A DNA stretch of 64,000 bases from Candidatus Multivoradales bacterium (GTDB taxonomy: Bacteria > Acidobacteriota > Thermoanaerobaculia > Multivoradales > JAHEKO01): positions 608,001 through 672,000 of the forward strand of contig CBDFIJ010000004.1 in NCBI GenBank assembly GCA_965248055.1, written 5' to 3'. Each line of letters opens with the position of its first letter. The stretch's first letter is position 1. Positions 7,019-61,968 of this stretch are shown here, piece after piece. The position numbers and the translations under genes are program-made. Under the pieces are notes generated by a model that had not been told where the DNA came from, did no database searches, and saw only the letters and a program-made list of their open reading frames with translations.

Positions 7019-7591
7019 TTATTCTGCTCCTTGCCAGCGTTCGAATAGATCCTTGTCGAGCTTGATATCCAATAAGTCCAAGACTCGATTTACCGTTTGA
7101 TCGACGATTGCCTCGATATTCTTCGGGCGATGGTAGAACGCGGGAGTCGGTGGGACAATCGTGGCTCCCAGCTCCGCCGCTTGCGCCATTAGACGCAGGT
7201 GCCCCAAATGAAGCGGCGTTTCACGAACCACTAGAACCAAGTTGCGCTTCTCCTTGAGGGTCACGTCAGCCGCTCGAACCAAGAGGTTCTGCGAGAAACT
7301 GTTGGCGATTCCCGATAGGGTCTTGACTGTGCACGGAATCACCACCATACCTAAGGTCTTAAACGAACCCGATGAAATCGAAGCGGCGATATCGCTAGGA
7401 GCGTGCGAGTAGTCAGCTAGAGCGGCGACTTCCTCCACTTTTCGATCCGTCTCCAACAAAATCGTACGCTTCGCCGAGGGGCTGATCACCAAGTGCGTCT
7501 CTATTTCGCCAACCTTCCCCAACACTTCCAGTAGCCGAATACCATAGATCGCTCCAGTCGCTCCAGAGATGCCGACGACAAGTCTCCTCAA
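7019..7591 (-). CDS. ubiX: Flavin prenyltransferase UbiX
   Basis: VVGISGATGAIYG, ISSGSF, RAADVTLKEKR, RETPL, PAFYHRP. Confidence 0.97.
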   Translation of the reverse strand: MRRLVVGISGATGAIYGIRLLEVLGKVGEIETHLVISPSAKRTILLETDRKVEEVAALADYSHAPSDIAASISSGSFKTLGMVVIPCTVKTLSGIANSFSQNLLVRAADVTLKEKRNLVLVVRETPLHLGHLRLMAQAAELGATIVPPTPAFYHRPKNIEAIVDQTVNRVLDLLDIKLDKDLFERWQGAE

Positions 7592-7653
7592 GGCTGCACC
7601 CCATTTCCTTTCCGAACTTGCCGGCTCGGCATTCTCAAATCTATACTTCGCAA

Positions 7654-8382
7654 TTAACCAATCTCATAGTCCTGACTTGCAACCAATACATGATGGCTGT
7701 ATTCAGCGAACAAGTTGGGCCACCATCTCATCCCCTGCTCCAGGAACCAACGCCGAATCGGTCCCCCAGCCAAGGGATTCTTGAGTGCAGCCCGGGTTTC
7801 GACCAACGTGAGCATTGGCGCCTCGGACTCCACCAAAGAAGAAAAATCCCTTGAATAGTCAAAGAAGCGAATGTGGAGTCCTTCCCCATCGTTAGTATGC
7901 AGCAGGTCTTTGCTTAGTCGCCCGCGTAGAAACGCCCATCGAAATTGCGCTTGAACCGCGTTGGGAAGGGTCACCAGCACTTTGCCGTTCGGCTTCAGCA
8001 CTCGAGCCGCTTCACGCAAGGCATGTCCAGGATCAAAGATGTGCTCAAGGCAACAGAGCATCGTCACCGCCTCTACGCTCGATTCTGCCAACGGAAACCG
8101 GTCTTTTGAAATATCGCAAGGGTGTACTTCTAAACCTTTCTCCGCTGCCCTCTGACGCGCACGATCTGAAACATCCAACCCCACAACCTGGCAACCCAAG
8201 TCGCGCACCAGCATCTCACCAAAAACGCCATCGCCACAGGCAGCGTCAAGAATGTGGCTCTCGGGAGTGATGTGGCCGGAAGCAAACGTCCATCGACTCC
8301 GCCAGCGCGATCGAAGAGTGGCGTACTGGGGCAACAACAGCTTCTGCTCCCAAACGCGATCGTAGTACTGCTCAATCATCAT
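7654..8382 (-). CDS. Class I SAM-dependent methyltransferase
   Basis: ILDAACGDG, VVGLDVS, LEHIFDP, RVLKPNG. Confidence 0.9.
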   Translation of the reverse strand: MMIEQYYDRVWEQKLLLPQYATLRSRWRSRWTFASGHITPESHILDAACGDGVFGEMLVRDLGCQVVGLDVSDRARQRAAEKGLEVHPCDISKDRFPLAESSVEAVTMLCCLEHIFDPGHALREAARVLKPNGKVLVTLPNAVQAQFRWAFLRGRLSKDLLHTNDGEGLHIRFFDYSRDFSSLVESEAPMLTLVETRAALKNPLAGGPIRRWFLEQGMRWWPNLFAEYSHHVLVASQDYEIG

Positions 8383-9820
8383 TTACGTCTTTCGTTAGAT
8401 GGCGTAGCCAGATCGAGCGCGCGCGACCGAGATCATCATCAGAAAACCCTGCAACCTTGGGAAAAGGTTGTCCATAAGGTCGACAAGCATCGATCAAGAG
8501 GCGCGAGTTCAAACCACCGCTGTCCGGTCCAACAGCAGGGTCCAACGGCCCTCCCCACGTGCCACGCACAATGTCGACATCCTTTTGCGGATCGGATCGT
8601 GTGGCCATCGCCCACAACACGGATTCCAGATCGGTAGCGTCGATATCTTCATCCACCGCGACCAGGTAGCGCCCCATATACGCACCTGCTGGCAGTGATG
8701 CGGCAGCCATGAGAACTTGTCGTGCGTGACCAGGATGGGTTTGGCGCACCGACACTACGATAAACAAACGCGTGCCCCCAGCTGGATGGCACCAGACTCC
8801 GTGGATCTCGCCAATCCCAGCGTCCTCGAGTTGTTGCCACAATTGAGCCGAGCGAGAGACAGCCCAAAAGGTGGTCAACTCTGAAGGCGGCCGCGACGTT
8901 GCAATAGCGAGGATGATGGGATTGTCGCGATGATAGATCGCCTGTACTTCGATTAGCGGCTCCTCGCGAGCGGTACGACTGTAATAGCCGCTCCACTCAC
9001 CGAACGGACCCTCCTCGGCCATACGGTTGGTCAGAACTTCCCCTTCGATCACCAATTCAGAGTGCGAGGGAACTGGCAGGCCATGAATCGGAGTCGCGAT
9101 GGTCTCCAACTGCTGGTTCATCATGCCACCCCAAACATCGTACTCGCAGACACCGTAGGGAACGTTGAGCCCGCTGACCATCACCAGCGATGGGTCGTGA
9201 CCAAATGACATCGCAATCGGCAACCTCTGAGTGTCGGCCTCGGCCTCGGCGAAATGACGACGTGAGTCTTTGCCGGCTGAAACCCGATAGAAGACATGTT
9301 TCTCATCATGCACCATGACACGAAAAGTACCCACGTTGACGGATCCATCTTTCGGAGAACGAGTGACACCCAGTGTGGCTGTTCCCAGATAGCGTCCGCC
9401 GTCGCCAGAGCGCCACTGCGGAGCAGGAAACGCCACCACGTTGACATGCTCACCATTAATCCTATTGTCCAAAACCGGCCCCGACTCAACGACTGTGTAT
9501 TCACGAGGTGGAATCTCACCTTGGCGCTGTTTCCACGCTCGCACCGTGTCCAACCCGTCGAGGCCTGGGGGAAGCCCTGCGCTGCGGGCAACACGGGTCG
9601 CTGAAGCAAGGCTGTTCACCAGTACCCGATGTCCCGCCGGGTAACCTGGAATATCGTCAAACAGCAATGCTGGCGGATGCGTTTTCCGACCCGCGATCTC
9701 CGCAACAGCACCCATTTCGACTTGCCACTGGACGCCGCGGAGCGTTTCCAATTCTCCGTCAGCGTCGGTATCTCTCAGCCACCGACGCAAGTCTTGTTTC
9801 ATCGCCGGATCAGGGGTCAA
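8372..9820 (-). CDS. UbiD-family prFMN-dependent decarboxylase (canonical motif)
   Basis: DLRRWL N-terminus, GGRYLGT, NVGTFR, EEGPFGEWSGYY, VDEDID...WAMATR. Confidence 0.93.
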   Translation of the reverse strand: MTPDPAMKQDLRRWLRDTDADGELETLRGVQWQVEMGAVAEIAGRKTHPPALLFDDIPGYPAGHRVLVNSLASATRVARSAGLPPGLDGLDTVRAWKQRQGEIPPREYTVVESGPVLDNRINGEHVNVVAFPAPQWRSGDGGRYLGTATLGVTRSPKDGSVNVGTFRVMVHDEKHVFYRVSAGKDSRRHFAEAEADTQRLPIAMSFGHDPSLVMVSGLNVPYGVCEYDVWGGMMNQQLETIATPIHGLPVPSHSELVIEGEVLTNRMAEEGPFGEWSGYYSRTAREEPLIEVQAIYHRDNPIILAIATSRPPSELTTFWAVSRSAQLWQQLEDAGIGEIHGVWCHPAGGTRLFIVVSVRQTHPGHARQVLMAAASLPAGAYMGRYLVAVDEDIDATDLESVLWAMATRSDPQKDVDIVRGTWGGPLDPAVGPDSGGLNSRLLIDACRPYGQPFPKVAGFSDDDLGRARSIWLRHLTKDVNDD

Positions 9821-11331
9821 CTGGCAAGATTCAAAGACTGCCAGAGGGCGTCGACCCGGGCTTCAACCGCGTCATCTTTGGTCACCCGCCTCATCACCTT
9901 CAGACCCAGTGGAACCGTGCAATCGACACCCATGAAAGGCCGGACATTGATCGGCAACTCCGCAGCCCCGTCGTAGACCCCAAGCTTGCTAGTCGCTCCC
10001 ATCTTCCCTTGAGCCAAAGGATCAATCGTCATACCCAACACGTTGGGAATCACCGTAAGGTCACGATCTCCCATGAAACGATGAGCCAACGCCCAGTCGC
10101 GCTCGTGGGGATTGTGAATATCAATGTCATCGTCGTAGACAAACACATGCTTGCAGAACCCGCCCAGAGCGGTGTAGGCGCGCATCATTGCCAGCTTGGG
10201 CTCACCCACCCGACCCTTCTTCATCGAAACATGAACCGTGAAACCGCAGCCCGCTGCCGGATCTGCAAACACGTCATGAACGTTCGGCAGAACCGCCTTG
10301 AGATCGAGAAAAACTTTCACCGAACGAAAAAACGCCGCGATGGTGTTGCACTCATTGAGCGGATGGCCGATATGCACGTGTTGGTAGATTGGGTTATTGC
10401 GCATAGTAATTGCGGTGACATCGAAAATCGGCCTGCGCCGAGGCTCATCGTAAAAACCGTTAAACGATGCGAAACGTCCCTGCGCCCCCCAATTGAAGGG
10501 TTTGAACACTCCTTCAACAACGATCTCTGAACTCGCCGGAACATCCACGTCTATGGTCTCGCACTTCACCATCTCCACCGGCTCACCGTGAATTCCACCA
10601 ACAAAGGCAAAGTCATCCGAGTCGTGAGGCAAGCCAGGGTTGGCTCCAGCCAACAAGAACGCTGGAGTCACACCCAATACATAGGCCATTGGAAACGCTT
10701 CCCCATTCTCCTTGTCCCATGTCGATGGGTCGTCTTCCGGGGTGGAACCCCAAGAATCCGCGATACTTCGTGCATCTCCTGTCAGTCGGAAAACCCATAC
10801 CGGACCGCTGTTGGGGCTCTGTACTTCAAACCGGTGATAGGAAAGATTGTGCCCATGCTGCGAGGGCTTCGAACACGCCAAACTGCTGATGAACCGACCA
10901 TCTAACGACACTTTGGAGCCGCCGTCTTCTGGGTTGAGGCGCGGAATGGGCAGCTTAGTAAGGTCGACATCGTCACCGCTGAGAATGATTTCTTTACAAG
11001 GTGCTTTGTCTGAATCAACCCGCACCGGCGCAATGCCCTTGGTTTGCATCACTTGCGCCATTTTCGCGGCGACTTCGGGCACTGCGTTGTTTTCCGATAC
11101 GCCGAACGTCTGAGCGATCCGGGAGTGACTCGCACCCAAGGTGTTGGCCAAGACCGGGATATCGAATCCCTTGGGATTCTCAAACAACAAGGCCTTGTGC
11201 AAGCCTTGATAGTCAGCGCGCGCGATCATCGCTCCCATGTCATCAAGTGTGTCTACCTCTTGCTCGATCCTGAGCAATTGGCCACTCGCTTCCAGATGTT
11301 CCAAATAGGACCGCAGGTCGTTCTTGCTCAT
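9817..11331 (-). CDS. UbiD-family protein with non-canonical active-site motif
   Basis: DLRSYLEHLE, LLFEN, NLSYHR, EIVVEG, DDDIDI; QGRFASF replaces EGPFGE. Confidence 0.88.
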   Translation of the reverse strand: MSKNDLRSYLEHLEASGQLLRIEQEVDTLDDMGAMIARADYQGLHKALLFENPKGFDIPVLANTLGASHSRIAQTFGVSENNAVPEVAAKMAQVMQTKGIAPVRVDSDKAPCKEIILSGDDVDLTKLPIPRLNPEDGGSKVSLDGRFISSLACSKPSQHGHNLSYHRFEVQSPNSGPVWVFRLTGDARSIADSWGSTPEDDPSTWDKENGEAFPMAYVLGVTPAFLLAGANPGLPHDSDDFAFVGGIHGEPVEMVKCETIDVDVPASSEIVVEGVFKPFNWGAQGRFASFNGFYDEPRRRPIFDVTAITMRNNPIYQHVHIGHPLNECNTIAAFFRSVKVFLDLKAVLPNVHDVFADPAAGCGFTVHVSMKKGRVGEPKLAMMRAYTALGGFCKHVFVYDDDIDIHNPHERDWALAHRFMGDRDLTVIPNVLGMTIDPLAQGKMGATSKLGVYDGAAELPINVRPFMGVDCTVPLGLKVMRRVTKDDAVEARVDALWQSLNLAS

Positions 11332-49432: not shown

Positions 49433-52400
49433 CTATCCGGCATTCACGATACCGATCCACTCCCGCATCTCGCCGAGGCTGCAACCGAACTTAGTGTGCC
49501 CGGCCCCCAGCTCTTGGGCTTCGATGATCTGCTCGCAAGAACAGCCACCGGTATCCTCGATGGTGAAACTAGCGTTAGGACCCTTGGGTGAGTGGCCACC
49601 GTTGTCGAACTGGTTGCCACCCGGAGAGACCGTGTCGAAGATTCCATCCCCGTCCACTAGAGCAAAGCGATTGGTGCCCAGATGGTCGGTCGGAACGCCT
49701 TCTGGAATGACGGTATCGGGACACAAATCAAATGCGTCCAACACCCCATCACCGTCGGAGTCGACCGACTCAATCACCGTTAGCGTAGCGCTTGCCGGAT
49801 CGGCCGCTACCGCCGGCCCCTGGCGCAGCGCACTGGTGGTGTTGGGGTAATCGCCCGACGTAGCCCCAGCGGGAACTTGTACCTCCACGCTGAAGGTACA
49901 CGAACCGCCAGGCAGCAGGTTACCGTCGGCAAGACTGATCAACGACGTCCCGGAGAGCGCCGAGCCCAGTCCGCAAACATCCGCAGTCGGCAGGCCGAGA
50001 GCAGACGCCCCAGACAGCATCGCGTCAAGGTCGTCGGTGAAAGCGAGACCGGTCGAACTGGTGGTGGTGCTCAGGTTCTCGATGGTAAACGTCAGAACCA
50101 CTATGTCGCCCGGTTCGGCGGTGCCGTCGAACGACTTACTGAACGAAACCAGGGAAATCTGCAACTCATCAGAAGCTGGGTCACCACTGACAGAACCACT
50201 GTCGGTTGAACCACTCACGCCGCTGGTTGTATTGATGAAGCCAGTCCCCACGCCGACCTCGTTCGGCACCTGCAAGCTGACATCGAAAACGCACGAACTA
50301 CTGGGTGCCAAGTTGCCACCGATGAAGCTCAAGACGCCAGCACCGGAGATTTGCGAGCCGAGACCACAGATGTCGTTTAGCGTGCCGCTAGTCGAAACCA
50401 AACCACTCAGTACGGCATCGAGGTCATCAGTAAACGCAATGCTATTGACGGTGTCGGTGGTGCTGGAGTTGTTGATGCTAAACCGCAGTGTAGCCGTACC
50501 ACCCGGAGGTACCGGATCGTCGATGAACTCCTTGCTAAGAGTCAAGAAGTTAGAAGATACAACCAGTTGGTCGATCGCGCCGTCGAACACCACGTTGGGC
50601 GTGCCGTCCATGGTGGCGGTAACTACATTGACCGAATTGACGTAAATGTCAGAAGCGGCCCCTGCTGGAACCTGCAAAGTGACGTCAAAAGTACAACTAG
50701 CACCAGACACTAGGTTGCCAGCTTGAAACGTCAAGTTATTGGTACCACTGATCTGCGACCCGGTGCCACAGATGTCGTTGGCGGGTAGCCCAACCGCAAC
50801 CAGACCACTTATGACTGCGTTCAGATTGTCGCTGAACACGATGGCGGTAGCATCTTCACCGACACTGTCGTTGGTCAGAGTGAACCGCAGGTTCACGGTG
50901 TCACCGGCAACCACTGGGTCGTCGGTGAACTCCTTAGTAAGCATCAAACCAGCAACCCGAAGGTCGTCACTGGCGCTGTTACCACTGGTGGCAACACCTC
51001 CGACGGTGGCAACCACGTTCGAAGTAGTGTTCGGGTAGTTGCCAGACGGTGTACCCGCGGGAACAACCAAGTCGACCGAGAATTGACAGCTAAAGATGGG
51101 GTTGCCCGCACCTGGATCCAGGAACCCATCCATTAACGTCAAGACACCGGAACTAAAGTCGAGCGAAGAACCGGCGCCACAAGGATCGGTTGGCAATACG
51201 CCAGCCGGTGCTAGCCCAGCCGCTACTGCCTCGAGATTGTCGGTGAAGGTGATCCCGTCAGCCGCATGGCTGACATCGAGATCGATCACGCCGTCGCCAT
51301 CAAGGTCATAGGTGACCGTGAACTGCAACGTTACCGTTCCGCCCGCTGCGACCGGGTCGTCGATGAACTCTTTGATCACCACCGGAGGAGCGACTACGTC
51401 TAACTCATCTGAGGCTGGATCGCCCGCCACCGCTTCGCCATTGATCACTCCGGAAATGTCGCTAGTGGTATTTAGGTAGGTCCCTGCGGGAGCCAACCCG
51501 TCGAGATCGAGGGTCAGGCTGAAGGTACAGCTAGCTCCCGCGGCCAACTCAGCTCCAGTTACCACCAGCTTCGCTGGGGTGGTGCTGGTGGACACGATCA
51601 AAGGCGTGTAGCTAGCGACCGAACCGGCACCGCAAAATCCGTTGGCCGGAACCACCGAAGCGGTGGGCAGCACATCGTCAAAGACATCCTCAAAGGTGAT
51701 GTCGGTCGCGGTCTCCGTGGAATGTGGGTTGGTAATCGTGAATTCGAGCTCAACGGTTTCACCACTGCCCACAGGGTTGTCGAGGAAAGTCTTGGTCAAA
51801 GTCAGAGTTGGCGCGATAAACAACAAGTCGGTTGCGGCCGCACCCACAGTTGGGTTGCCGTCCACGGTCGCTGAGATTGCGCTGGTGGTATTGGTGTAAG
51901 TTCCTGGAGCTGCACCTGCTGGAACCGCAAGCGTGGCGCTGAATACACAGGTGCCGCCGGCGGGCAATTCTCCAGCAGTGAGACTCACAACCCCAGTGCC
52001 ACTGAATTGAGAGCCAGCACCGCAAATACCGTTGACGGGCAAGCCGGTGGCTTCAAGGCCAAATAATGCGGCCCCGAGGTCGTCGGTAAAAGCAATGTCG
52101 GTAGCAGTCGAGCCACGACTCAGGTTACGCACTTCGAACTCGAGCGTCACCGTTCCACCAGGAGCAGTGGGATCGTCGGTAAAGGTTTTGGTCAAAGCAA
52201 TCAGGTTTGAGGCCACTTGGACCTGATCCGTAGCGAATCCGCTATTTAGGATGGGTTGGGATCCTGGGGCAAGCAGTGAAGTTAGATCACCGCTGACGTT
52301 GTTGAGAACGCCAGATGCGTTGGCGGTCACGTCGACGACGACGGTACAGCTCGCCCCGGCAGCCACAGTAGCGTCCCCTTGAAATGCGGGACTGTAAGTG

Positions 52401-53062
52401 ATGACCGAAGTCCCGGCGGCCGCCGTGAGCACCCCACCACCACAAGTCGACGACGCGTTAGCCGGGTTGGCAACCGTCATGTTGGGTGGCAAGTTGTCGG
52501 TGAAACTTAAGCTGACCGCACCGCCCGCATTGGCAGCGTTATCGATCAGAAAGGTGAGGGTACTGCGGGCACCAAAAGCAACAACATTGGGCGAAAAAGA
52601 TTTACTAAAACCCGGCAGGTCTGAGGCGACAGTCAGATCAGCACTCGCTGTCCCGCTGTTACCTGCATCCGAGGTCAAATCCCCGGAAACGTTGCTGTGG
52701 GTTCCTGGCGTCGCAGAGGTTACGTTGAGCGAAACGCTACACGATCCGCCAGCGCCAACCTCGCCTCCGGTTAAAGAAATCGTCCCGCCCCCCGCTGGGG
52801 TAGAAACCGTTCCGCCACAAGAAGACAAAACGCTAGACGGATCGGCAATCGTCATCCCGGCTGGGAAAGTGTCGGAAAAAGCCAAAGACCTCACCCCAAC
52901 TCCTGAACCGTTGGCAATCGAGAACTCCAACGAAGAAGTGCTTCCAATCCCGATGGTTGACGGAGTAAACGCCTTGGAAAACGTGGGTGGTTGAGCGAAA
53001 GCAATCGACGCAGTCGCGACGATCAGTAACGCAGTGATTAGGAAAAACTTTTTGTTCGCCAT
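49433..53062 (-). CDS. Large secreted protein with 8 DUF11-like Ig-type repeats and a C-terminal TSP3-like Ca-binding motif
   Basis: Signal peptide; eight KxF...F(T/S/E)D...CG...C...N repeats; DSDGDGVLDAFDLCPDT. Confidence 0.88.
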   Translation of the reverse strand: MANKKFFLITALLIVATASIAFAQPPTFSKAFTPSTIGIGSTSSLEFSIANGSGVGVRSLAFSDTFPAGMTIADPSSVLSSCGGTVSTPAGGGTISLTGGEVGAGGSCSVSLNVTSATPGTHSNVSGDLTSDAGNSGTASADLTVASDLPGFSKSFSPNVVAFGARSTLTFLIDNAANAGGAVSLSFTDNLPPNMTVANPANASSTCGGGVLTAAAGTSVITYSPAFQGDATVAAGASCTVVVDVTANASGVLNNVSGDLTSLLAPGSQPILNSGFATDQVQVASNLIALTKTFTDDPTAPGGTVTLEFEVRNLSRGSTATDIAFTDDLGAALFGLEATGLPVNGICGAGSQFSGTGVVSLTAGELPAGGTCVFSATLAVPAGAAPGTYTNTTSAISATVDGNPTVGAAATDLLFIAPTLTLTKTFLDNPVGSGETVELEFTITNPHSTETATDITFEDVFDDVLPTASVVPANGFCGAGSVASYTPLIVSTSTTPAKLVVTGAELAAGASCTFSLTLDLDGLAPAGTYLNTTSDISGVINGEAVAGDPASDELDVVAPPVVIKEFIDDPVAAGGTVTLQFTVTYDLDGDGVIDLDVSHAADGITFTDNLEAVAAGLAPAGVLPTDPCGAGSSLDFSSGVLTLMDGFLDPGAGNPIFSCQFSVDLVVPAGTPSGNYPNTTSNVVATVGGVATSGNSASDDLRVAGLMLTKEFTDDPVVAGDTVNLRFTLTNDSVGEDATAIVFSDNLNAVISGLVAVGLPANDICGTGSQISGTNNLTFQAGNLVSGASCTFDVTLQVPAGAASDIYVNSVNVVTATMDGTPNVVFDGAIDQLVVSSNFLTLSKEFIDDPVPPGGTATLRFSINNSSTTDTVNSIAFTDDLDAVLSGLVSTSGTLNDICGLGSQISGAGVLSFIGGNLAPSSSCVFDVSLQVPNEVGVGTGFINTTSGVSGSTDSGSVSGDPASDELQISLVSFSKSFDGTAEPGDIVVLTFTIENLSTTTSSTGLAFTDDLDAMLSGASALGLPTADVCGLGSALSGTSLISLADGNLLPGGSCTFSVEVQVPAGATSGDYPNTTSALRQGPAVAADPASATLTVIESVDSDGDGVLDAFDLCPDTVIPEGVPTDHLGTNRFALVDGDGIFDTVSPGGNQFDNGGHSPKGPNASFTIEDTGGCSCEQIIEAQELGAGHTKFGCSLGEMREWIGIVNAG

Positions 53063-53593
53063 GAATTAGTTACTCCTGTTGCGGGTCCAATAGACCCGTG
53101 TTGGAACCGCCTTCACCAACAAACCCCCATAAAAAAAACACCGACGATTTTCTGTACCTTACATCACACCCTCGCGCCTCGTAAAGTTGTCGCGGTACTT
53201 GAAACCTGAGACTCCATTTAAGCCTGCAAATAAGAGAATCTGAACGATCTCTCTTGGTAATATTTGTCGCAACTTAGTAGCTCATGCATCAGCATTTCTG
53301 AAGGCAGACTGGATGGTTCCCGTGAATCGTATATCCAAATTTCCAATGGGATTTAAGTCTTGGCCACGCTCAATAGAGGCGACTTTCCGAGATCCACTAC
53401 GGAGCACGTAGCAATATGCCAGTCCGAATAGTGGTGAATTCTGAGCACTGGGACCACCTATTTGGCAGGGCTCGAGCCGCAGAGCGGCCCCAACCGATGC
53501 ATACTCAGGGTCGAGTTCCAAGGCTGTTGTCTTTGTCGGGGTCAAATCTGCTGATGAAAGAAAATCATTTCACTACCCAGGGCGAATATTCGA

Positions 53594-54163
53594 GTGAGTG
53601 GCACCTTTCTCGAATTCTTACCCGATCAAACTAATCCTATCCACTGCGGTAACCTCTCCGCTGTGCAACGTTCGAGGTTGACCCTGGCAACTGCGGCCGT
53701 CCTCCTTGGATTGGCCGCTGGCGTTGTGTGGCTAGTAAGGCCAAGGCACGGCCCGATCCAAGACCTGACCTCGTGGACTTGGAAAGGCGCCCCCACAACG
53801 ACGGAGCCACTCCAGGGTGGATCAAGTGAAGATTGCTCCTTGGCACAGAGCTTCGTCCTTCGAAAGCTAGGCCGAGTATCCGTCCATCAGGCCGCGGGAA
53901 TCCCAGGGAGTTGCATGTACCTGTTGCAGCTCAACGGTTGGCCGGAGGGAGAAGATGAGTGCATCTTGGAGTTTCCTGTTGAGATGATCCGTGGACTTGA
54001 GATCACAACAGCGACTGCTTGGCTCGCAACACGCTATTACCAACACAGGCAAGGCGGAATTATGGTTTTTTCAGGCCCTGAGCCTGGCCGAAGATACATT
54101 TCACTGGACTCTCGTTGGTGCAAGTTCGAGGGCGTTGTAAACGGAATTCGCGCTATTTCGTAG
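53594..54163 (+). CDS. Hypothetical membrane-anchored protein
   Basis: TM helix then Cys-containing domain; no recognised family. Confidence 0.4.
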   Translation: MSGTFLEFLPDQTNPIHCGNLSAVQRSRLTLATAAVLLGLAAGVVWLVRPRHGPIQDLTSWTWKGAPTTTEPLQGGSSEDCSLAQSFVLRKLGRVSVHQAAGIPGSCMYLLQLNGWPEGEDECILEFPVEMIRGLEITTATAWLATRYYQHRQGGIMVFSGPEPGRRYISLDSRWCKFEGVVNGIRAIS

Positions 54164-54223
54164 CCCCAGGGCTGTCTGGTTGGATCAAATATTTCGAATA
54201 GTCGGCTGGCATCTACTAACTCA

Positions 54224-55242
54224 GATCCACTGAGGAGTTTCAAAGCCATCTTGTTGAGCGCTACCAGCGGCGCACCCGAGAGGTGGATGAAGCGATTCTC
54301 GGCTGCTACCTAGCAGGGGCCAACAGCCGTCGGATCAAGAAGGCCTTGACTCCACTGCTGGGCAGGGAGCATCTATCCAAGAGCGCTGTGTCTCGGGTGG
54401 TATCTCGTTTGAAAGAGCACTTTGCCCGTTGGAGTGAACGAGGCCTGTCTGAGGAAAGCTACCCGATCTTGTTTCTTGATGGCTTTCACTTGAAAGTGCG
54501 GCTTGCTCGGCGCGTAGTGTCAGCTCCGGTGCTGGCTGCTCTGGGGGTAAGAGAAGATGGCACCAAAGTCCTGGTAGCTCTACGGTTAGCAGCCAGTGAG
54601 GCAGGCAGTCACTGGAAGTGGTTGATTGAAGATCTTAAACGCAGGGGCTTGAAAGCACCGCATCTCCTGGTCTCAGACGGCCACAAGGGCTTGGCGGTGG
54701 GAGTCAGAGCTTGGCCAGAGGCCAAAGTCCAGCGTTGTATCCAGCACAAGTGGGAAAACCTGAAGAAGCACTGCCCTAAGCATGCTCATGGTGAGCTCAA
54801 GCGAGACTGGGATCAAGTGGTGCGAGCCCAAGATGCCCTGGCGGCCCGAGAGAGTTATTCAATCTTTGTTACCAAGTGGTCCAAGCTGGTGCCCGCAGTA
54901 GCCAGGAGCTTCCAAGAGGCTGGGATGGAACTGATCACTTTCGACGATTTACCGAGATCATTGTGGCGATCCACAAGGACCACCAACGCGCTGGAGAATC
55001 TCAACCGTGAGTTTCGGCGCCGTACCAAGACCCAAGGCTCATTCTCGACTGAGGCAGCGGGTGTCACTTTGCTCTGGGGGCTCGTTGCTTTTGGACAGAT
55101 CAGGATGCACCGCATCAACGGCTACCAAGATTTGCACCGGATGCTTGACCGTCAAGCAGCCGCGTAGCACTAGAATCAACCAAACCTGACCGCGGGAGAC
55201 GTTACGCCAAATACCAATTTCCACAAGATTCGGGACACATCC
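54224..55242 (+). mobile_element. 5'-truncated second copy of the IS256 element
   Basis: Near-identical to about 14782-15800; right inverted repeat intact, left repeat and transposase N-terminus missing. Confidence 0.93.
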
Positions 55243-55351
55243 AAAGGATTCCGCCGGATATTCTCTCGCTTCGACAAATTGGACGTCATCTTCACTTTCT
55301 TCATATACTTCGCGCTCATCGTAGATGCCATTCGTTAGTGTTAACACGCCC
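55243..55351 (+). mobile_element. IS5-family 3' remnant
   Basis: Encodes KGFRRIFSRFDKLDVIFTFFIYFALIVDAIR*, then TGTTAACACGCCC-TA terminal repeat. Confidence 0.75.
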
Positions 55352-55591
55352 TAATTCAGTTCGCGGACAAGAGGTTCTTTTGTGTGAGTTCAGAAGTGCT
55401 GGACAGGTTCAAAGAGCCAATTGACACGAACGCTTTCCAAGCCTATGCCGAGATCTTCTCTCGAACGATCAACGAGCATCGCAGCTTACGAGGACGGCCC
55501 GAGTATGGTGAGGCCCCCAACGGGCCGAAATATTCGGCTGGCACTTTTCTCGGCTTCATCTCATCCTGACTTTGTCTAACCACACCGACAA

Positions 55592-56611
55592 CTAGTCAAC
55601 ACGATAGATTTCGTCGCCTGAAATCTTAAGGACATAGGCATAGGTTTCTGGAAGGTTGTTCATTTGACGTGTGCCAATCGAGTAATCGGCGCTGTATGCT
55701 TTTGGCTGCGTATAGTAAACGCTACCACCGGTCAGACGAGCGTAAAGCAACATACTGAGAGAGATTGGCTTGGGACCATACGGGGCGTAGATGGAGCCAT
55801 TCTTTGACCCAGAGGCAAACGCGTGTATATGTGAGAATATCTCTGAAACATCCTTCCAATCCACCCACTGCATGTTAGGCGTTCGCTCCCCAAGGTCTCT
55901 GTCGAAAGCTTGGAGAAACTCCCACACGCGGTGATGTTCTGGCGTAAGTCCCGGAACGGGAACGAGCAAATGAAACTCCGCATGTTCGTATTGCTGATCT
56001 CCAAGAGGTGGAAGATTCAACGCTTGGAAACCAACGGAAATGACTACATTTTCGATCCGTTCCGGTGGGTAGTTTGGGCCAAACATAGGAAGATGAGCCC
56101 ATGGCTCAGGATCTTCGGCTAGTGCTCCGCTCCCATACCTCTCTGCTAGCGTATAGGTGACAATTAGGTTCTTGACGTTATCTGCGTCGAGAAGCATTTT
56201 GACCGTTGGAAAAAAGAAGCGCTTCGGCATAGTCGAAATGTCCACGATCACGTCTCCTTGCGGTGCACAATCGGTAACAAATCGATTCACCCGATCAGCG
56301 ATCTCTTGGGTACTCGCGAACAGTTGAATGTCCTCAACTGCGCTGGCTAGACCCCCTAGGGCACACAGCCGTTGTACCGTTTCGCTTGTCCTCTGCTGCA
56401 CCTCATCAGTGAACCGTGACGGCGGATCCTTGATAGAGAAGAATAAGCAAGGAGTGCATGATTCTGTCTTAGTCAGCACTTCCCAACAAGCGAGACACCT
56501 AGACTCTGGTCCCACGCTCCCAACAAAGCCCCACCGGCTCACATCCATTCGCTCAGCAATCCAAGAGAGTGGGCCCCACGGGCGCCATTTACCCTTCTCA
56601 AGTTCTTTCAT
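55592..56611 (-). CDS. Hypothetical protein, putative tandem CARF-like Rossmann fold
   Basis: VIVDISTMPKR and YAPYGPKP strand-loop-helix motifs; start abuts the ATPase stop (TAAATG). Confidence 0.6.
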   Translation of the reverse strand: MKELEKGKWRPWGPLSWIAERMDVSRWGFVGSVGPESRCLACWEVLTKTESCTPCLFFSIKDPPSRFTDEVQQRTSETVQRLCALGGLASAVEDIQLFASTQEIADRVNRFVTDCAPQGDVIVDISTMPKRFFFPTVKMLLDADNVKNLIVTYTLAERYGSGALAEDPEPWAHLPMFGPNYPPERIENVVISVGFQALNLPPLGDQQYEHAEFHLLVPVPGLTPEHHRVWEFLQAFDRDLGERTPNMQWVDWKDVSEIFSHIHAFASGSKNGSIYAPYGPKPISLSMLLYARLTGGSVYYTQPKAYSADYSIGTRQMNNLPETYAYVLKISGDEIYRVD

Positions 56612-58639
56612 TTAGAAGAGTTCGAGCTGGTCGGAGCGGCCGTCTTGCGGCTTCGTCCTCCGCACCTCCTGAGCCTCGCGATTCCCCTTGGCAGCCTCCA
56701 TCCACGAGAGCGCCTCCGAAACCTTGACGTAGAGAGGTTCCTTGGCATGCTTTGCTGGTATTTGAAACCGCGGGGAAAGGATGGGTGCCAAATACCACTT
56801 ATTTCGGGGGCGTTTGTCCTCCCTATTGGTGGTGTGACGTGCATCGAACAAATGCCCGTAGTCGACTGCTTGTTTTAAGAACTTGTCGAGCTCCACGTAT
56901 TCTCCTAGTTCGTCTTCATCCAGTGAGAATCCGTTGTGTCCCGGGTATGCCATCCCTTTGTCTGCAAGCAACCTCTTGCGAAATGACCTGCCAAGGAACG
57001 AAACAAAACGTCGATACGTATGACCATTTGGCTGCTCCATAATTTTTTGATACCAGTACTCGCTTGCCTGAAATATACCAACCGTCTGTTCCTTGGTATC
57101 AATCGGGAACCGTACGCGTTTGTTGTTCACAATTGGATGTTTGCTCTCATATCGTGACCAGGTGGAAAAGATTTCTCTAGCTAGACTGATAAACACCAGT
57201 ATGTTTCCACCACTTAAGACACGTAGGTCGTCCTCACCAGACCACCTTAATCGCTGCTGACGCCTTGCAGCCATCTGCAGCAGTGCTTGGTGGACTCGCT
57301 CCTTTCTCCACCAACTCTTTGATTTCCATGAGAGTCCGTTCGCGGGTGGCTCTTGCTCAAGCATACGTGAACCCTTCTGCTGGCGGAGCATAGCTGCCCC
57401 CAAATTGGCGGATAGTGGGCTAGTCTCGCTCAGTTCGCGCAAATATACCTTCCAACCTTCGGGCCATTGCTCTACCAAGTCCAGGGAACGCTCAGCGTCG
57501 CTCCCCGCATAGACCTTGGCCTCATTCTCTGGCGAAGGTGTTTTGCCAAATACCTGTCGGGACAACGTTTCGCCACCTCCCTCAAGCTCGTAACCAGCGA
57601 ATTCCAGGCGTCGTTTCAGTACATCATCAGAGAAATCTGGGAAGATCCAAGTGCGGCGGTTTTCCTTCCTCCGCAATAGGTCATCCAGGTCAATCACGCG
57701 GTAGTTTCTCTCGTGTTCGAGGTTCGCTTCTGAACCGAAAATCCTCAAGTCCTCTCGCCAGGCGTATCGGCGAGCGCCAATTCGATAGGACACCTTAGGA
57801 TCCCGCGTCGCGAGGGCCTTGTTAATTAGTCGACGAAACTTGGGCTCTACCCGGTGAGCGTGAACATCACTAGCGAACCTCCCAACTTCCTCGTATTGGT
57901 CAACTCGAACAAACACTGGCATTTCCTTCGGAATTATTCCTATCTCTCTAAGCCCCTTGGCCGTTTGAGAAATCGGTTCACCGACCGGCGTCTTGGTGGT
58001 TGCGATCTCCGTAGGAAGGCGTTCCATATTGAAGTTCAGGAACGAGCGATACAGAGTCAGTCTTTTTCTCAGCCGTTTCCGTAGCTCTTCACAGTTCCGT
58101 ATTCCATCCAAGAATCCTAACCAACAGTCTTGCGCTGCTAACCATTGAGCGAATTCATCAAGACGACCACCGTGGGTATTGATGTTCCAAGATCTTGCCA
58201 ACTTACCTTCGCATGCGTCGTCGAGCTTCGAAACTGACTCAAGAATATCTTCAACTACCCAGTAGTTAAGGAAATCACCAAAATAGACAGCCGAAACGGC
58301 GCCCAGGTCCGGCCCATTTTCCTCCTGGAGTCGGCGTTGGCCGAAATCTGTGGCCGCACTCCTCGCGAGGTTAATCCCCGCTCCAATGAATCTGGCGTCA
58401 TCTTGGGGGAGCGGAAACTGCACACCAGCCGTGAAATAAGCAATCTGAATCTCTGGCTTAAGTAGGCTGAGAAGCATACTCTTACCGCTACCCTGAACTC
58501 CCTTCACTACGACATTGCCCACTTGGAACAATTCCTGAGCATGCTCTACAAGAAAAGGGCTAAACAGGGTCACAAAATCCTCTGGGGCAATGGTTTCGGA
58601 AACATAGAGCTCGTGAAATGGATTGCTGATCCGCGGCAT
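56612..58639 (-). CDS. P-loop ATPase (ORC/CDC6-like)
   Basis: Walker A GVQGSGKS, Walker B FVRVDQYE, LSGGN; start ATG 58639 with GAGGT RBS. Confidence 0.8.
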   Translation of the reverse strand: MPRISNPFHELYVSETIAPEDFVTLFSPFLVEHAQELFQVGNVVVKGVQGSGKSMLLSLLKPEIQIAYFTAGVQFPLPQDDARFIGAGINLARSAATDFGQRRLQEENGPDLGAVSAVYFGDFLNYWVVEDILESVSKLDDACEGKLARSWNINTHGGRLDEFAQWLAAQDCWLGFLDGIRNCEELRKRLRKRLTLYRSFLNFNMERLPTEIATTKTPVGEPISQTAKGLREIGIIPKEMPVFVRVDQYEEVGRFASDVHAHRVEPKFRRLINKALATRDPKVSYRIGARRYAWREDLRIFGSEANLEHERNYRVIDLDDLLRRKENRRTWIFPDFSDDVLKRRLEFAGYELEGGGETLSRQVFGKTPSPENEAKVYAGSDAERSLDLVEQWPEGWKVYLRELSETSPLSANLGAAMLRQQKGSRMLEQEPPANGLSWKSKSWWRKERVHQALLQMAARRQQRLRWSGEDDLRVLSGGNILVFISLAREIFSTWSRYESKHPIVNNKRVRFPIDTKEQTVGIFQASEYWYQKIMEQPNGHTYRRFVSFLGRSFRKRLLADKGMAYPGHNGFSLDEDELGEYVELDKFLKQAVDYGHLFDARHTTNREDKRPRNKWYLAPILSPRFQIPAKHAKEPLYVKVSEALSWMEAAKGNREAQEVRRTKPQDGRSDQLELF

Positions 58640-58641
58640 GA

Positions 58642-59679
58642 CTACCACCTCGCCGATCGTGGAAACAGTGGACTCCAATCGCTTGACGAGTGGTGCACAA
58701 TTGGGACGGTGTTATCTGGAGTATTCGTGAATAAAACTACTGTTCCGCCGGTCCTACGATATCCAAATGGTGTGTAGGGTTTGTCTTTCTCCGACAAGGG
58801 CGGATTGGCACCGCAGACTTGAGCAAAGCTGACCTCCAAGAGAGCACGCAACTCGCCGAAGACTGCAGGCTCCGATTCCGAGGGCTGCGGTGATACAAAC
58901 ATATGTTTTTCCAGAGCTAGAACCGGTTCGAACTCTAGATTGGCATGTCTATTCGCAAGAGCCCTGCCTTTTGCAATGCCCGCCGGGCAAATAATAAGAG
59001 GGGTCAGCAGGACTCGTACGTTCTCCGAAAGTGAAGCAACAAAATCAACAGGATCTGCCATCTGACTCCCGCTGCCCACGAAATCCTCAAGCAGTACTAT
59101 GTGCTGTATGTCTCTCTTTTTAAGATACTCAAGGATCTTAGTTTTTGACCCGAGCTTGTGCAGGGTCATCCAAACAGGCCTGTACCACCGGCCTTCAATT
59201 TGGTTTACATGATAAAAATTCGCAATATCCATACTGTCAGTGATCGAGCAGAACCAAGTCTTGTCTATGACATTTGCCAGTGTTTGGTCTACGGCTTCGC
59301 GGTCAAAACTCGCACCTCGGTCAAGATCACGCAGTGCATGACGCGCGAACGGACCGTTAAATGCAGCGCGACACAAACCGTTGAGGTGTTCTTTAGTTAT
59401 GTAAAGCAGGAACGGAACGAGCTTAAACAACACCCTTTGCTGCTCCTCAGATTCAACGTTACTCAACCAGTCGCGGAGTCTCACCGGAAACTCCGGGAAC
59501 GGCCCAGCAGTCGGAACGTAGTCTCCAAATGCATGTTTCGAGACATATTCGATCACGTCGAACATCGTCAGGTAGTTTGCTCCCGAAGCAACGTTTCCAA
59601 CATCCAGGGAATCAAAACTCTCCTCTAGAGTCCACTTCTCCAATTGCTCTACGAAACTACGTGTGTTCGGCCAACTCAC
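58642..59679 (-). CDS. Phosphoribosyltransferase-like protein
   Basis: PRPP-loop-like IVLLEDFVGSGSQ; C-terminal PFGY...NTPDNT...WSPLFPR. Confidence 0.75.
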   Translation of the reverse strand: MSWPNTRSFVEQLEKWTLEESFDSLDVGNVASGANYLTMFDVIEYVSKHAFGDYVPTAGPFPEFPVRLRDWLSNVESEEQQRVLFKLVPFLLYITKEHLNGLCRAAFNGPFARHALRDLDRGASFDREAVDQTLANVIDKTWFCSITDSMDIANFYHVNQIEGRWYRPVWMTLHKLGSKTKILEYLKKRDIQHIVLLEDFVGSGSQMADPVDFVASLSENVRVLLTPLIICPAGIAKGRALANRHANLEFEPVLALEKHMFVSPQPSESEPAVFGELRALLEVSFAQVCGANPPLSEKDKPYTPFGYRRTGGTVVLFTNTPDNTVPIVHHSSSDWSPLFPRSARW

Positions 59680-60878
59680 TGGAGAAGGCTCCGACGCACA
59701 CTTCGGGCTATCCAGGCAGCGGCCGGTGGAGGTACCGCGTTTCCGATCTGCCGATACTGATCCTGCCGCCTTCCGGAGAACTCATAGTCATCTGGAAACC
59801 CCTGCAGACGAGCGGCCTCACGAACGGAAAAACCGCGTGTTTCAGCCGGGTGGAGAAAATAGCGAGGATCTCCAAATCTGGTGTGCACGGTAGGAGCAGG
59901 CTCGTTCCACTGCAGTCGTTTGTATTTTCCGTTAAACGTCCGCGTCAGATCCCAATTGTCACCTACTTTCCGGATATACCCTTTTCCTAGGAGAGAGCGT
60001 GCTATATCAAGATACGCACTCCCCCATTTGCTCTGCAGCCGGTCAGGCGGTACTGGATCAGCATCGCCCCAGTTACGCCTTCGATTACGTCTCCTCTCTC
60101 GAAGTAAGAACGTAAGCAAAGCTCTTTCCTCGGCCGTTGTCCTTCCAAAGACCGAAGGGATTTCCCAGGTGTGAACAGCGTTCGGGCCAGCTCTTACATT
60201 GGAGAGTTTCTGGCCCGGACCTATGTGAGCTGCGATGGCCGTAACAACGCTATCAGCAGGTGGCCGGACTGGATAGTGGTCTGGTAGCGATTCAACATCT
60301 TTGAGCGCGTCGGCCAAAGACGACGCCTTTTCACCAAGGTGCTCCATGTAGAACTCCGCGTCCGTCCGCCATGCAATCAGCAACAGCCGCTTGCGGACTT
60401 GCGGAAGTCCAGATCTATCTGCATGACATACAAACTCTCGCGTACGAAATCCGCCTGATGAAAGACATTCATGAGCAGCCTGCCAGTACTTTCCATGTCC
60501 CCCGGTACGTGCTGCGGGGACGTTCTCAAGGACAAACACTTTTGGTCTGAGAAGGGTGGCCAGTTCTGCGGCGAGAGGCACGAAGTGATTTCGTGGATCA
60601 TCCACTCTTCTTTTTCCAGCCGTGGAAAACCCTTGACAAGGTGGCCCGGCGAGTAACACATCCACGTTGTAAGCTCTCGACGGAAACTCTGCAGGAGTCG
60701 AAAGGTCGCGGACCTCGCTTACTTTAGCGATGTTGTGTTCGTAGCTCGACAACGCGGCGGCATCAACGTCGAAAGCAGCAACCGGGCGAAAGCCGCTGTG
60801 AAGAAACCCTAAGTCAAACCCGCCGCAACCCGAAAAGAGACTTGCGAACCGAGGGGTGTCTTGAATCGCCGATAGCAC
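59676..60878 (-). CDS. DNA (cytosine-5) methyltransferase
   Basis: FSGCGG, GPPCQGFS, ENV, QVRKR, VREAARLQGF, YRQIGNAVPP; start GTG 60878 (the longer ORF overlaps tRNA-Cys). Confidence 0.95.
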   Translation of the reverse strand: MLSAIQDTPRFASLFSGCGGFDLGFLHSGFRPVAAFDVDAAALSSYEHNIAKVSEVRDLSTPAEFPSRAYNVDVLLAGPPCQGFSTAGKRRVDDPRNHFVPLAAELATLLRPKVFVLENVPAARTGGHGKYWQAAHECLSSGGFRTREFVCHADRSGLPQVRKRLLLIAWRTDAEFYMEHLGEKASSLADALKDVESLPDHYPVRPPADSVVTAIAAHIGPGQKLSNVRAGPNAVHTWEIPSVFGRTTAEERALLTFLLRERRRNRRRNWGDADPVPPDRLQSKWGSAYLDIARSLLGKGYIRKVGDNWDLTRTFNGKYKRLQWNEPAPTVHTRFGDPRYFLHPAETRGFSVREAARLQGFPDDYEFSGRRQDQYRQIGNAVPPPAAAWIARSVRRSLLQ

Positions 60879-60928
60879 TTGCCCATTATAGAAGCACGTG
60901 AGGAACGCCAAACTAATTGCGTGATTGA

Positions 60929-61003
60929 TGGAGGCGACGGTCGGAATCGAACCGACGAATGAGGGTTTTGCAGACCCTTGCCTTACCACTTGGCTACGTC
61001 GCC
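60929..61003 (-). tRNA. tRNA-Cys(GCA)
   Basis: GGCGACG...AGGGT-CT-GCA-AA-ACCCT...GGTTCGATTCC...CCA. Confidence 0.97.
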
Positions 61004-61059
61004 TTGAGAGAACGGGGCGCCGGAGAATCGGAACCTCGAAAAGGCACAAGGATAAGAAA

Positions 61060-61134
61060 TGGAGCGGGAAACGGGATTTGAACCCGCGACCCCAACCTTG
61101 GCAAGGTTGTGCTCTACCACTGAGCTATTCCCGC
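61060..61134 (-). tRNA. tRNA-Gly(GCC)
   Basis: GCGGGAATAGCTCAG...CAACC-TT-GCC-AA-GGTTG...TTCAAATCC...CCA. Confidence 0.97.
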
Positions 61135-61145
61135 CCGGGCATCGA

Positions 61146-61174
61146 AGGATAGAAAGCGGGGGGCGGGGTGTCAA
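61146..61174 (-). promoter_or_regulatory. Sigma70 promoter of the tRNA-Gly/tRNA-Cys operon
   Basis: TTGACA-17 nt-TATCCT just upstream of tRNA-Gly. Confidence 0.8.
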
Positions 61175-61235
61175 GGAAAAGGGAGATTTTGGTGGCTTTT
61201 GCGCCGATAAGTTGGGTTGAGGAGGTTGTGGCGTC

Positions 61236-61596: not shown

Positions 61597-61968
61597 TTAG
61601 CGATTCTCGAAAGCGTCGGTGATGTGTTGGATCTTCCACTTGCCGCCAACGCGATCCATGGCCAGGACATCGAAGCGGCAAGGGCCGGTGTGTGGATTGG
61701 TGATCAGGTAGATGTGGGCGGCGCGGAGGATGCGCTGAATCTGTGCCGGGCTGACCGATTCAAGGGAGCCGAAATAGGCGTTGCCTGCGCGGGCTTTGAC
61801 TTCGATGAAACATAGGGTGTTGCCCGTGCGAGCGATGAGGTCGATTTCCCCACCACGAATGCGGTAGTTGCGTTGCAGGATGCGGTAGCCGCGTAGCCGG
61901 AGCCACCAGGTGGCGCGTTGTTCGGCGTTGCGTCCACGCAGAACAGGGAGAAGGCCCCCGGTGGTCAT
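61597..61968 (-). CDS. yraN: YraN/UPF0102 PD-(D/E)xK nuclease
   Basis: GRNAE, RNYR, GEIDLI, FIEVKAR, RFDV. Confidence 0.92.
   Translation of the reverse strand: MTTGGLLPVLRGRNAEQRATWWLRLRGYRILQRNYRIRGGEIDLIARTGNTLCFIEVKARAGNAYFGSLESVSPAQIQRILRAAHIYLITNPHTGPCRFDVLAMDRVGGKWKIQHITDAFENR

Follow-up and report, generated by a model that had tools for sequence, protein, structure and literature searches.

A mobile four-gene cassette at tRNA-Cys that couples a C5 methylase to a PRTase-like protein, an ORC/Cdc6-like ATPase and a tandem-CARF protein: a candidate methylation-gated immune or exclusion system

The DNA analysed here, which we call the window, is a stretch of 64 kb from a Candidatus Multivoradales bacterium of the phylum Acidobacteriota (assembly GCA_965248055.1, contig CBDFIJ010000004.1, positions 608,001 to 672,000 of the forward strand). 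Positions 55592-60878 of the window hold a cassette of four genes which, in the list of open reading frames (ORFs), all lie on the minus strand and are translationally coupled. In the order in which they are read, they encode a C5 cytosine DNA methyltransferase (59676..60878, 400 amino acids), a phosphoribosyltransferase-like (PRTase-like) protein of the PRTase-CE family, which is the predicted effector (58642..59679, 345 amino acids from a GTG start), an ORC-CDC6-like AAA+ ATPase (56612..58639, 675 amino acids from the ATG at 58639 in an ORF open from 58678), and a stand-alone tandem-CARF protein of the CARF6 clade (55592..56611, 339 amino acids). The methylase ORF spans 59676-61049, but a start upstream of 60929 would run into a tRNA-Cys (GCA) gene, placed by ARAGORN at 60929..61003 on the minus strand, so the in-frame GTG at 60878 is the likely start; it puts the N-terminus ten residues ahead of the FxGxGG motif. 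The methylase stop and the PRTase GTG start share the bases GTGA at 59676-59679, a 2-nt gap at 58640-58641 separates the PRTase stop (58642) from the ATPase ATG (58639), and the TAA of the ATPase gene directly abuts the ATG of the CARF gene (TAAATG at 56609-56614). GC content is 0.49-0.55 over the cassette, as against 0.58-0.62 over the neighbouring cysS region. An initial annotation of the window, made from its letters and ORFs, had described four co-oriented, coupled genes with these same junctions and had judged them AT-richer than cysS; both descriptions hold.

The same annotation had called the products a C5 methyltransferase with all of its motifs intact, a PRTase-like protein, an ORC/CDC6-type ATPase and a single-chain, pseudo-dimeric CARF protein, and profile searches and structure models bear out each of these calls. 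All four proteins match class models, three of them above the Pfam curated cut-offs. The methylase matches PF00145 (DNA_methylase, E 2.1e-56) in Pfam, TIGR00675 (E 1e-41) in NCBIfam, which names no other protein of the cassette, and the MTase_II, DruM (E 2.2e-65) and DrmMII (E 6.6e-45) models of PADLOC. It has the C5 motifs FxGxGG, GPPCQGFS, ENV, QxRxR and GNAVPP, which hardly vary among 58 aligned sequences, and the catalytic domain resembles those of M.HaeIII, M.HhaI and DNMT1. For the target-recognition region (residues ~215-345), sequence comparison gave no counterpart in methylases of solved structure. Long blocks of it are kept across the 58 sequences, which come from many phyla, and this suggests that the subfamily may share one DNA specificity, directed at a fixed motif.

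The 345-residue protein belongs to the PRTase-CE family (PF24390, E 1.6e-31; 110.6 bits against a cut-off of 27, over profile positions 2-253 of 253). It also matches the PADLOC model PDLC02935 for retron type III-A PRTases over residues 66-342 (E 6.1e-20, the best among the PRTase_III-A models). In type I PRTases, the loop that binds phosphoribosyl pyrophosphate (PRPP) is formed by a hydrophobic strand, two acidic residues and then a glycine-rich turn. The corresponding loop here, IVLLEDFVGSGSQ (ED..GxGxQ), meets this general pattern, and E198, D199, G202, G204 and Q206 within it are invariant among 25 sequences. When the PRTase alignment was compared with solved structures by profile search, nothing was returned at E values up to 1.

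The ATPase is assigned to the ORC-CDC6-like family PF24389 with an E value of 5.1e-41 (141.5 bits against a cut-off of 27), and its Walker A residues G47, G50, G52 and K53, together with D247, Q248 and E250 of the Walker B region, are invariant in 26 sequences. A structure model of the protein (pLDDT 87.1) resembles Cdc6 within the origin recognition complex (Z 12.3, rmsd 3.7, 246 residues aligned), the archaeal AAA+ proteins SSO1545 (Z 11.9, rmsd 4.7, 321 aligned) and PAB2304 (Z 11.4), MuB (Z 11.7, rmsd 4.0, 233 aligned), Orc1 (Z 11.4, rmsd 4.5, 264 aligned) and BrxC (Z 10.4, rmsd 4.4, 297 aligned); Avs3 and TnsC are also among its structural matches. With Foldseek, the top match is again BrxC, a weak one (E 2.5e-3). 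An AAA+ fold of the ORC/Cdc6 clade is thus supported by the structure matches, with Z values that are middling for a model of 675 residues. The alignments with SSO1545 and PAB2304 cover more than 320 residues and reach residue 626, and the C-terminus of the protein is a strand-helix region that may be a winged helix. PADLOC gave no system-level match for the ATPase, and NCBIfam holds no model that matches either the ATPase or the CARF protein.

No Pfam family matches the 339-residue protein. In PADLOC it matches PDLC01923, 'CARF6--CARF_CARF_CARF', over residues 8-314 (E 1.2e-70, profile positions 2-295 of 299). Folded with an alignment of 25 sequences, it yielded a model (pLDDT 90.1, pTM 0.92) with two Rossmann-like CARF halves, at residues ~26-160 and ~185-306, and no effector domain. 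The best match of this model in VIA-align is the type III CRISPR-Cas nuclease Can1 (6sce_A; Z 14.2, rmsd 3.3, 227 aligned), over residues 26-306 and therefore over both halves, followed by Can2 (Z 12.1, rmsd 3.1, 117 aligned, residues 179-306) and then by Csm6, Card1, Csa3, Csx1, Cam1 and the ring nuclease Sso2081; the top 20 rows consist of CARF-type proteins or their relative VC1899 in all 20 cases. This search superseded one with Foldseek, in which tandem USP-like domains came first with TM scores of ~0.25. A profile of the CARF alignment found only chance-level rows among solved structures (best E 0.36). By its modelled fold, then, the protein is a stand-alone tandem CARF without an effector domain. 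Its homologues number 229 at E values up to 0.001 among 1727 candidates; the 120 of these that were listed bear only the names 'hypothetical protein' or 'uncharacterized protein', and none of them has a precomputed Pfam domain.

Two short motifs in this protein had been put forward in the initial annotation as CARF loops, and both contain invariant columns in the 25-sequence alignment and follow the fourth strand of their respective halves. In DISTMPKR (124-131) the invariant residues are D124, P129, K130 and R131, and in APYGPKP (276-282) they are A276, P277, G279, P280 and K281. The loop after strand 4 of CARF domains follows the pattern [DN]x[ST]xxx[RK], which DISTMPKR in the first half fits and APYGPKP in the second, despite the invariant K281, does not. 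Because the two halves carry different conserved loops, we infer that an asymmetric ligand would suit this protein better than a symmetric ring.

The ATPase and the CARF protein are also predicted to bind each other. A model of the complex, built with ATPase residues 1-655, scored 0.79 (0.81, 0.76 and 0.79 in the individual runs) against 0.00 for the best control, this score being the model's own confidence. Contacts agreed between runs to at least 71%, and the pLDDT of the partners was at least 81. The mark used to judge such scores is reached by 58 of 80 solved complexes and by 2 of 110 mismatched pairs, and it is only a rough guide for this pair, for which our own alignments were used. The model therefore supports binding between the two proteins, through CARF residues 98-105, 135-142 and 167-183 and ATPase residues 92-103, 191-203 and 535-541. 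Since this predicted interface uses the inter-domain linker of the CARF protein (167-183) and helices, and avoids the conserved loops at 124-131 and 276-284, the loops could remain available to a ligand.

A scan of one genome per species recovered 81 encoding stretches related to the cassette, of which 80 loci were kept. The order methylase-PRTase-ATPase-CARF is found on one strand in 70 of them, with stops and starts mostly overlapping, and the four-gene observation of the initial annotation, which had looked to conservation of this order as a check, is thereby confirmed overall. The arrangement lies far beyond chance, and the four genes travel together as one operon. Contig ends cut eight of the ten remaining loci (L003, L021, L022, L029, L034, L043, L068 and L080), and the other two, L074 and L076, are genuine exceptions. 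Judged by record titles, for which binning errors are possible on short contigs, the loci come from Planctomycetota, Bacteroidota, Acidobacteriota, Verrucomicrobiota, Pseudomonadota, Chloroflexota, Nitrospirota, Nitrospinota, Desulfobacterota, Actinomycetota, bacteria of the candidate phyla radiation and one Nitrosocosmicus archaeon.

The cassette is self-contained. When 1827 ORFs from the flanks were clustered, the only genes that recurred in at least six loci were those for Vsr (11 loci), a tyrosine integrase (10), a sigma-54 response regulator (7) and ThyX (6). No cas gene, cyclase gene or nuclease gene, apart from that of the repair enzyme Vsr, recurs in the flanks of the 80 loci. The earlier remark that no restriction endonuclease is recognisable also stands, as none was matched in the cassette proteins with Pfam, PADLOC or NCBIfam and none is conserved beside the cassette. 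Among the 57 complete-order loci that passed a length filter, taken together with the window, the pairwise-identity matrices of the PRTase and the ATPase correlate at 0.71, those of the ATPase and the CARF protein at 0.68 and those of the PRTase and the CARF protein at 0.51, values that speak of co-inheritance and not of interaction, as related sequences share history. For every pair of genes, none of 300 permutations reached the observed value. The three genes other than the methylase thus co-vary.

Vsr is a usual companion of C5 methylases. A Vsr mismatch endonuclease gene (PF03852) follows the cassette in 11 of the 80 loci and lies within less than 200 bp of it in five (examples are L002:9006-9455, L004:8989-9498 and L042:7626-8087); the island in the window has none. 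ThyX (PF02511) stands directly beside the cassette, on either side, in six of the 80 C5-type loci (L030, L045, L048, L067, L071 and L073, at less than 300 bp) and in two of nine loci of the wider class described below (L095:4033-4950 and L100:8948-9925). A pyrimidine-nucleoside-phosphorylase-like gene adjoins two of the fused forms in that class, L099 among them. The ThyX neighbours hint at a link to dUMP/dTMP metabolism.

Of 401 genomes sampled from the phylum of the window's genome, 11 have a PF24389 match, a count that includes the window's own genome and one genome flagged as unpublished (G099). With the latter left out, nine other PF24389 loci of the phylum, L095 to L103, were annotated. 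L095 encodes an N6/N4 methylase, a PRTase, the ATPase, CARF6 and ThyX, and L096 a D12 N6A methylase, a Metallophos protein, the ATPase and CARF6. In L097 an HD-CE protein (PF24391) stands with the ATPase, CARF6 and a C5 methylase. L098 has a TIR domain fused to the ATPase, with CARF6 and an N6/N4 methylase, and L100 a methylase, a kinase-like domain fused to the ATPase, CARF6 and ThyX. L101 combines a ParA-like protein and SIR2 with a kinase-like domain fused to the ATPase and with CARF6. L099 and L103 each encode a single 1230-residue chain of kinase, ATPase and CARF, with a C5 methylase gene no more than 2.3 kb and 1.3 kb away, respectively, and L102 has the ATPase alone. Two of these loci have further features. 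In L098 (5409-8722) an ISL3-family transposase breaks the TIR-ATPase gene, which makes this an inactivated copy. In L101 (2954-4844) the ParA-like ATPase (PF13614) and the SIR2_2 protein lie directly upstream of the kinase-ATPase/CARF6 pair and may be another effector combination of the class.

CARF6 is adjacent or fused to the ATPase in eight of the nine loci, while the methylase varies between N6/N4, D12 N6A and C5 types. The constant core of the wider class is thus the pair of ATPase and CARF6, around which different types of methylase and, in the PRTase position, different enzymes are found. That eight of nine loci keep this pair while methylase and effector change argues that the ATPase and the CARF protein may form the sensing core and that the role of methylation may be generic. 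Because relatives put HD, Metallophos, TIR or kinase-like domains in the PRTase position and retain the ATPase and CARF6, the PRTase is most likely the effector of the system. The initial annotation had proposed that the PRTase makes or consumes a nucleotide, and in view of these substitutions an exchangeable effector is a likelier role for it than a maker of signals. In L099 and L103 the kinase-ATPase-CARF chains match PDLC01925 ('CARF6--CARF_STK_AAA') end to end, and the three parts are there physically coupled. Since such fusions, with the effector at the N-terminus of the ATPase and the CARF domains at its C-terminus, mirror the gene order, they imply that ATPase, CARF protein and effector could form one complex also where they are encoded separately. 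A docking module common to the PRTase and the HD-CE and Metallophos proteins of relatives was looked for with hhalign and none was found (probability 0.14).

In the window, the cassette is part of a recent insertion at tRNA-Cys. Comparison with the same-genus genome G364, which has no PF24389 match, aligned window positions 49478-52969 with positions 6217-9684 of one stretch of it (L112) and window positions 60927-61176 with positions 10091-10328 of the same stretch (blastn and tblastx). Some 320-400 bp in the relative thus correspond to ~7.9 kb in the window. The insertion, of ~7.5-7.9 kb, spans 53060..60927; its left boundary is approximate, and its right-hand boundary is the 3' end of the tRNA-Cys gene, at position 60929, two bases beyond which synteny resumes at 60927. 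The absence of the insertion from the same-genus genome and a GC content below that of the flanks both point to recent acquisition. Besides the cassette, the insertion contains ~1.1 kb without a recognisable family and a 5'-truncated insertion sequence (IS) of the IS256/Mutator family on the plus strand (54224..55245), which is what the initial annotation had taken for IS debris. Its transposase ORF (54283-55167) matches PF00872 at E 8.8e-64 over profile positions 104-366 of 379 only, and at least eight further matches to the copy, at 97-98% identity, lie elsewhere in the genome; four of these extend over its full ~1.02 kb. A search for an integrase in the insertion and for att-like direct repeats of the 3' end of tRNA-Cys returned neither.

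Some observations concern the surroundings of the cassette. A segment of ~110 bp beside the IS copy, within 55243-55365, recurs with 80-88% identity at least eight times and could represent a small repeat element. To the left, the insertion is flanked by a gene (49433-53062) for a large repetitive surface protein of 1209 residues, with a signal peptide-like N-terminus and many ~100-residue repeats rich in T, S, G and A, which is conserved in the same-genus genome (65% DNA identity). Just beyond the tRNA genes, at 61597-61968 on the minus strand, lies a gene for a small nuclease-fold protein of the UPF0102/YraN type (PF02021, E 4.9e-27); the same-genus genome has it too, so it does not belong to the island. 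A scan for promoters and terminators returned no more sites than shuffled sequence did. The sole strong promoter-like site, at 61146-61174 on the minus strand, lies upstream of tRNA-Gly, and the 50 nt between tRNA-Cys and the methylase start (60879-60928) contain no terminator-like site; transcripts of the tRNA operon may thus continue into the cassette. Among the sequencing runs, four in number and all from a single study, no RNA run is listed.

The class to which the cassette belongs has already been catalogued by computation, as dedicated models exist for it: PF24389, PF24390 and PF24391 in Pfam, whose consecutive accessions suggest a single source, and the CARF6 models PDLC01910-01925 in PADLOC. 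The window's cassette is the member with a C5 methylase and a PRTase. The initial annotation had offered the four-gene set as a candidate new system. With respect to experiment this stands, as full-text searches of a collection of articles found no paper that names or experimentally tests the class; with respect to computation it does not. The term 'CARF6' led to no relevant paper in the searched literature, and the text of Kaur et al. (2020, eLife) contains neither PRTase nor ORC. In the portions available, a preprint on BREX and one on ParA mention ORC-CDC6-like proteins and do not mention the cassette. Among the articles searched, 'PRTase-CE' occurs solely as a Pfam label in a single retron survey, of 2026, which names the PRTase-CE families of Pfam as the partner proteins of type III-A retrons (PMC13712802).

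Several known systems share parts of this architecture. BREX type 1 likewise combines a DNA methylase with a large ORC/Cdc6-clade AAA+ ATPase and no nuclease, and its BrxC is the top Foldseek match noted above. However, the cassette lacks PglZ, BrxA, BrxB and BrxL, matches no PADLOC BREX model and has a small C5 enzyme (PF00145) in place of PglX, and BREX has neither CARF protein nor PRTase. Type III-A retrons share the PRTase, by virtue of its matches to the PRTase_III-A models, but neither the cassette nor its conserved flanks contain a reverse transcriptase (non-coding RNA was not searched for), and the partners of the PRTase are here an ATPase, a CARF protein and a methylase. Can1, with two CARF domains in one chain, has the same tandem pseudo-dimeric fold; in contrast to it, the CARF protein of the cassette has no nuclease or effector domain, and the window's genome has no Cas10 over the cut-off. 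The C5 methylase matches DrmMII of DISARM class 2 and DruM of Druantia type II, which are likewise linked to methylation and have no classical restriction enzyme, whereas the other three proteins match no Drm or Dru model. Type II restriction-modification (R-M) systems differ in that their methylase is paired with a restriction endonuclease. By analogy, the cassette would work most like BREX or R-M, and would combine an effector PRTase of retron type with a sensor fold of CRISPR type.

As CARF domains raise the question of where a signal might come from, we searched 51 carrier genomes, namely those of 50 of the 70 complete loci and that of the window, for signal synthases at curated cut-offs. 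Csm1 was over its cut-off in one of the 51, Cmr2 in three and SMODS in six, which together make 10 genomes; there was one strong partial Cas10-palm match in addition. The other 41 carriers have none of the three over the cut-offs, an absence that is less certain in the many of them that are incomplete metagenome-assembled genomes. The window's genome, which is 97.7% complete, has no Cmr2 or SMODS match and for Csm1 only a weak, partial, sub-threshold one (E 1.6e-7, model positions 7-100). The cassette itself encodes no cyclase. Because most carrier genomes are without Cas10 or SMODS over the cut-offs, a general dependence of the cassette on type III CRISPR or CBASS signals appears unlikely.

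Taken together, these data lead us to lean, with slightly better than even confidence, towards an immune or exclusion system that is mobile and self-contained, gated by methylation, regulated by the CARF protein and directed at nucleotides. The mechanism can be inferred from the anatomy of the genes. The C5 methylase, as the initial annotation had likewise proposed, would label the DNA of the host as self, at one fixed motif. The ORC/Cdc6-like ATPase, the predicted switch and hub of the system, would bind DNA, probably via its C-terminal region, and would switch state on unmodified incoming DNA. The tandem-CARF protein would sit on the ATPase and gate it by binding a nucleotide ligand that does not come from Cas10 or a CD-NTase. 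Once activated, the complex would release the PRTase-CE effector to consume PRPP or nucleotides, and this consumption would stop the replication of a phage or plasmid, or arrest the cell. A bolder proposal, which we put forward tentatively, is that the class may represent a branch of epigenetic immunity, in which an ATPase-bound tandem CARF senses a nucleotide from a source other than Cas10 or CD-NTases, together with methylation status, and fires interchangeable nucleotide-targeting effectors without cutting DNA. The candidate signal would then be a metabolite derived from the infection or from the effector, possibly one tied to dUMP/dTMP, which we consider because ThyX neighbours recur.

Several observations weigh against a methylation-gated immune system. 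The specificities of classical R-M systems diversify, whereas the target-recognition region of this methylase is conserved, which a simple model of self and non-self does not predict. The methylase also correlates weakly with the other three genes (0.26-0.46), and the higher correlations among those three are, as noted, a sign of shared inheritance. L076 lacks a methylase, and L074 consists of ATPase and CARF protein only, beside unrelated genes. At least one gene is shortened or split in 13 of the 70 complete-order loci, the other 57 being those that passed the length filter, so many copies of the cassette may be decaying. The PRTase fold is assigned from hidden Markov model matches and the motif, with no solved relative by sequence. 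The score of the ATPase-CARF complex is the model's own confidence and was obtained with alignments that we made ourselves, and the lack of Cas10 and SMODS is of lower confidence in carriers with incomplete genomes.

The alternative that survives best, although we regard it as unlikely, is an addiction module that acts by post-segregational killing. In such a module the methylase would be the antidote, and loss of the element would dilute methylation until the ATPase, CARF protein and PRTase kill or arrest the cell, thus stabilising the island. The architecture would be the same as for an immune system, and the methylase gene comes first in the operon. The variable flanks, the integrases in 10 of the 80 loci, the position at a tRNA gene with an IS copy alongside and the patchy distribution (11 of 401 genomes) would all suit a selfish element. 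However, addiction leaves the need for a nucleotide-sensing CARF protein unexplained, L074 and L076 persist without a methylase, and shortened genes in 13 of 70 copies argue against strong addiction. Nor would addiction exclude defence, as type II R-M systems act in both.

Could the tandem CARF instead respond to cyclic oligoadenylates from a type III CRISPR-Cas or CBASS system encoded at another genomic locus, and serve as an extra effector arm, a ring nuclease or a sponge? Its closest structures are all CARF proteins that bind these molecules (Can1, Can2, Csm6, Card1 and Sso2081), and the CARF6 profile presumably originates from a CARF classification centred on CRISPR ancillary proteins. We nevertheless consider this improbable, given that Csm1, Cmr2 or SMODS is over the cut-offs in so few carrier genomes, that the window's nearly complete genome offers only the weak Csm1 match, that the flanks contain no recurrent cas or cyclase gene, and that the different loops in the two CARF halves would accommodate an asymmetric ligand more readily than a symmetric ring.

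PRTases transfer phosphoribosyl groups to bases, and the cassette could in principle be a DNA hypermodification pathway, in which a methylase-like enzyme, the PRTase and the ATPase build a complex base and no immune effector is present. ThyX beside the cassette (6 of 80 and 2 of 9 loci) and the pyrimidine-nucleoside-phosphorylase-like gene beside two fused forms would agree with such a pathway. This seems very unlikely, however, as relatives fill the PRTase position with the chemically unrelated HD, Metallophos, TIR and kinase-like domains, and as the methylase switches among C5, N6A and N6/N4 types where a modification pathway would keep its chemistry; the methylase of the C5 cassette, moreover, retains all the canonical motifs. 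Least probable of all, to the point that we give it hardly any weight, is a set of replication or maintenance genes of a mobile element without a function in conflict: the best structural matches of the ATPase (Cdc6, Orc1, MuB and TnsC) and the location in an inserted island would be in keeping with a replication initiator, but the surroundings of the 80 loci share no conserved backbone of a replicon, transposon or prophage, tblastn of the ATPase against 72,556 plasmid and 50,697 phage records gave no match at E values up to 1e-5, and relatives fuse the ATPase to TIR or kinase-like domains or pair it with SIR2, which are typical immune effectors.

The cassette class is compact, widely transferred and spread over many phyla, and it is known from computation. 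It is small enough to be cloned directly, and a methylase specificity that is fixed across phyla would be an unusual and testable feature. If the ORC-like ATPase is what links methylation with an exchangeable effector, the cassette would provide a simple four-gene model of BREX-like immunity without a nuclease, the mechanism of which is debated. Nearly all that is understood of CARF domains concerns their role as receptors for cyclic oligoadenylates from type III CRISPR-Cas, and here a CARF protein is found in an operon without a signal synthase. The identity of its ligand would reveal the signals to which CARF domains respond outside CRISPR.

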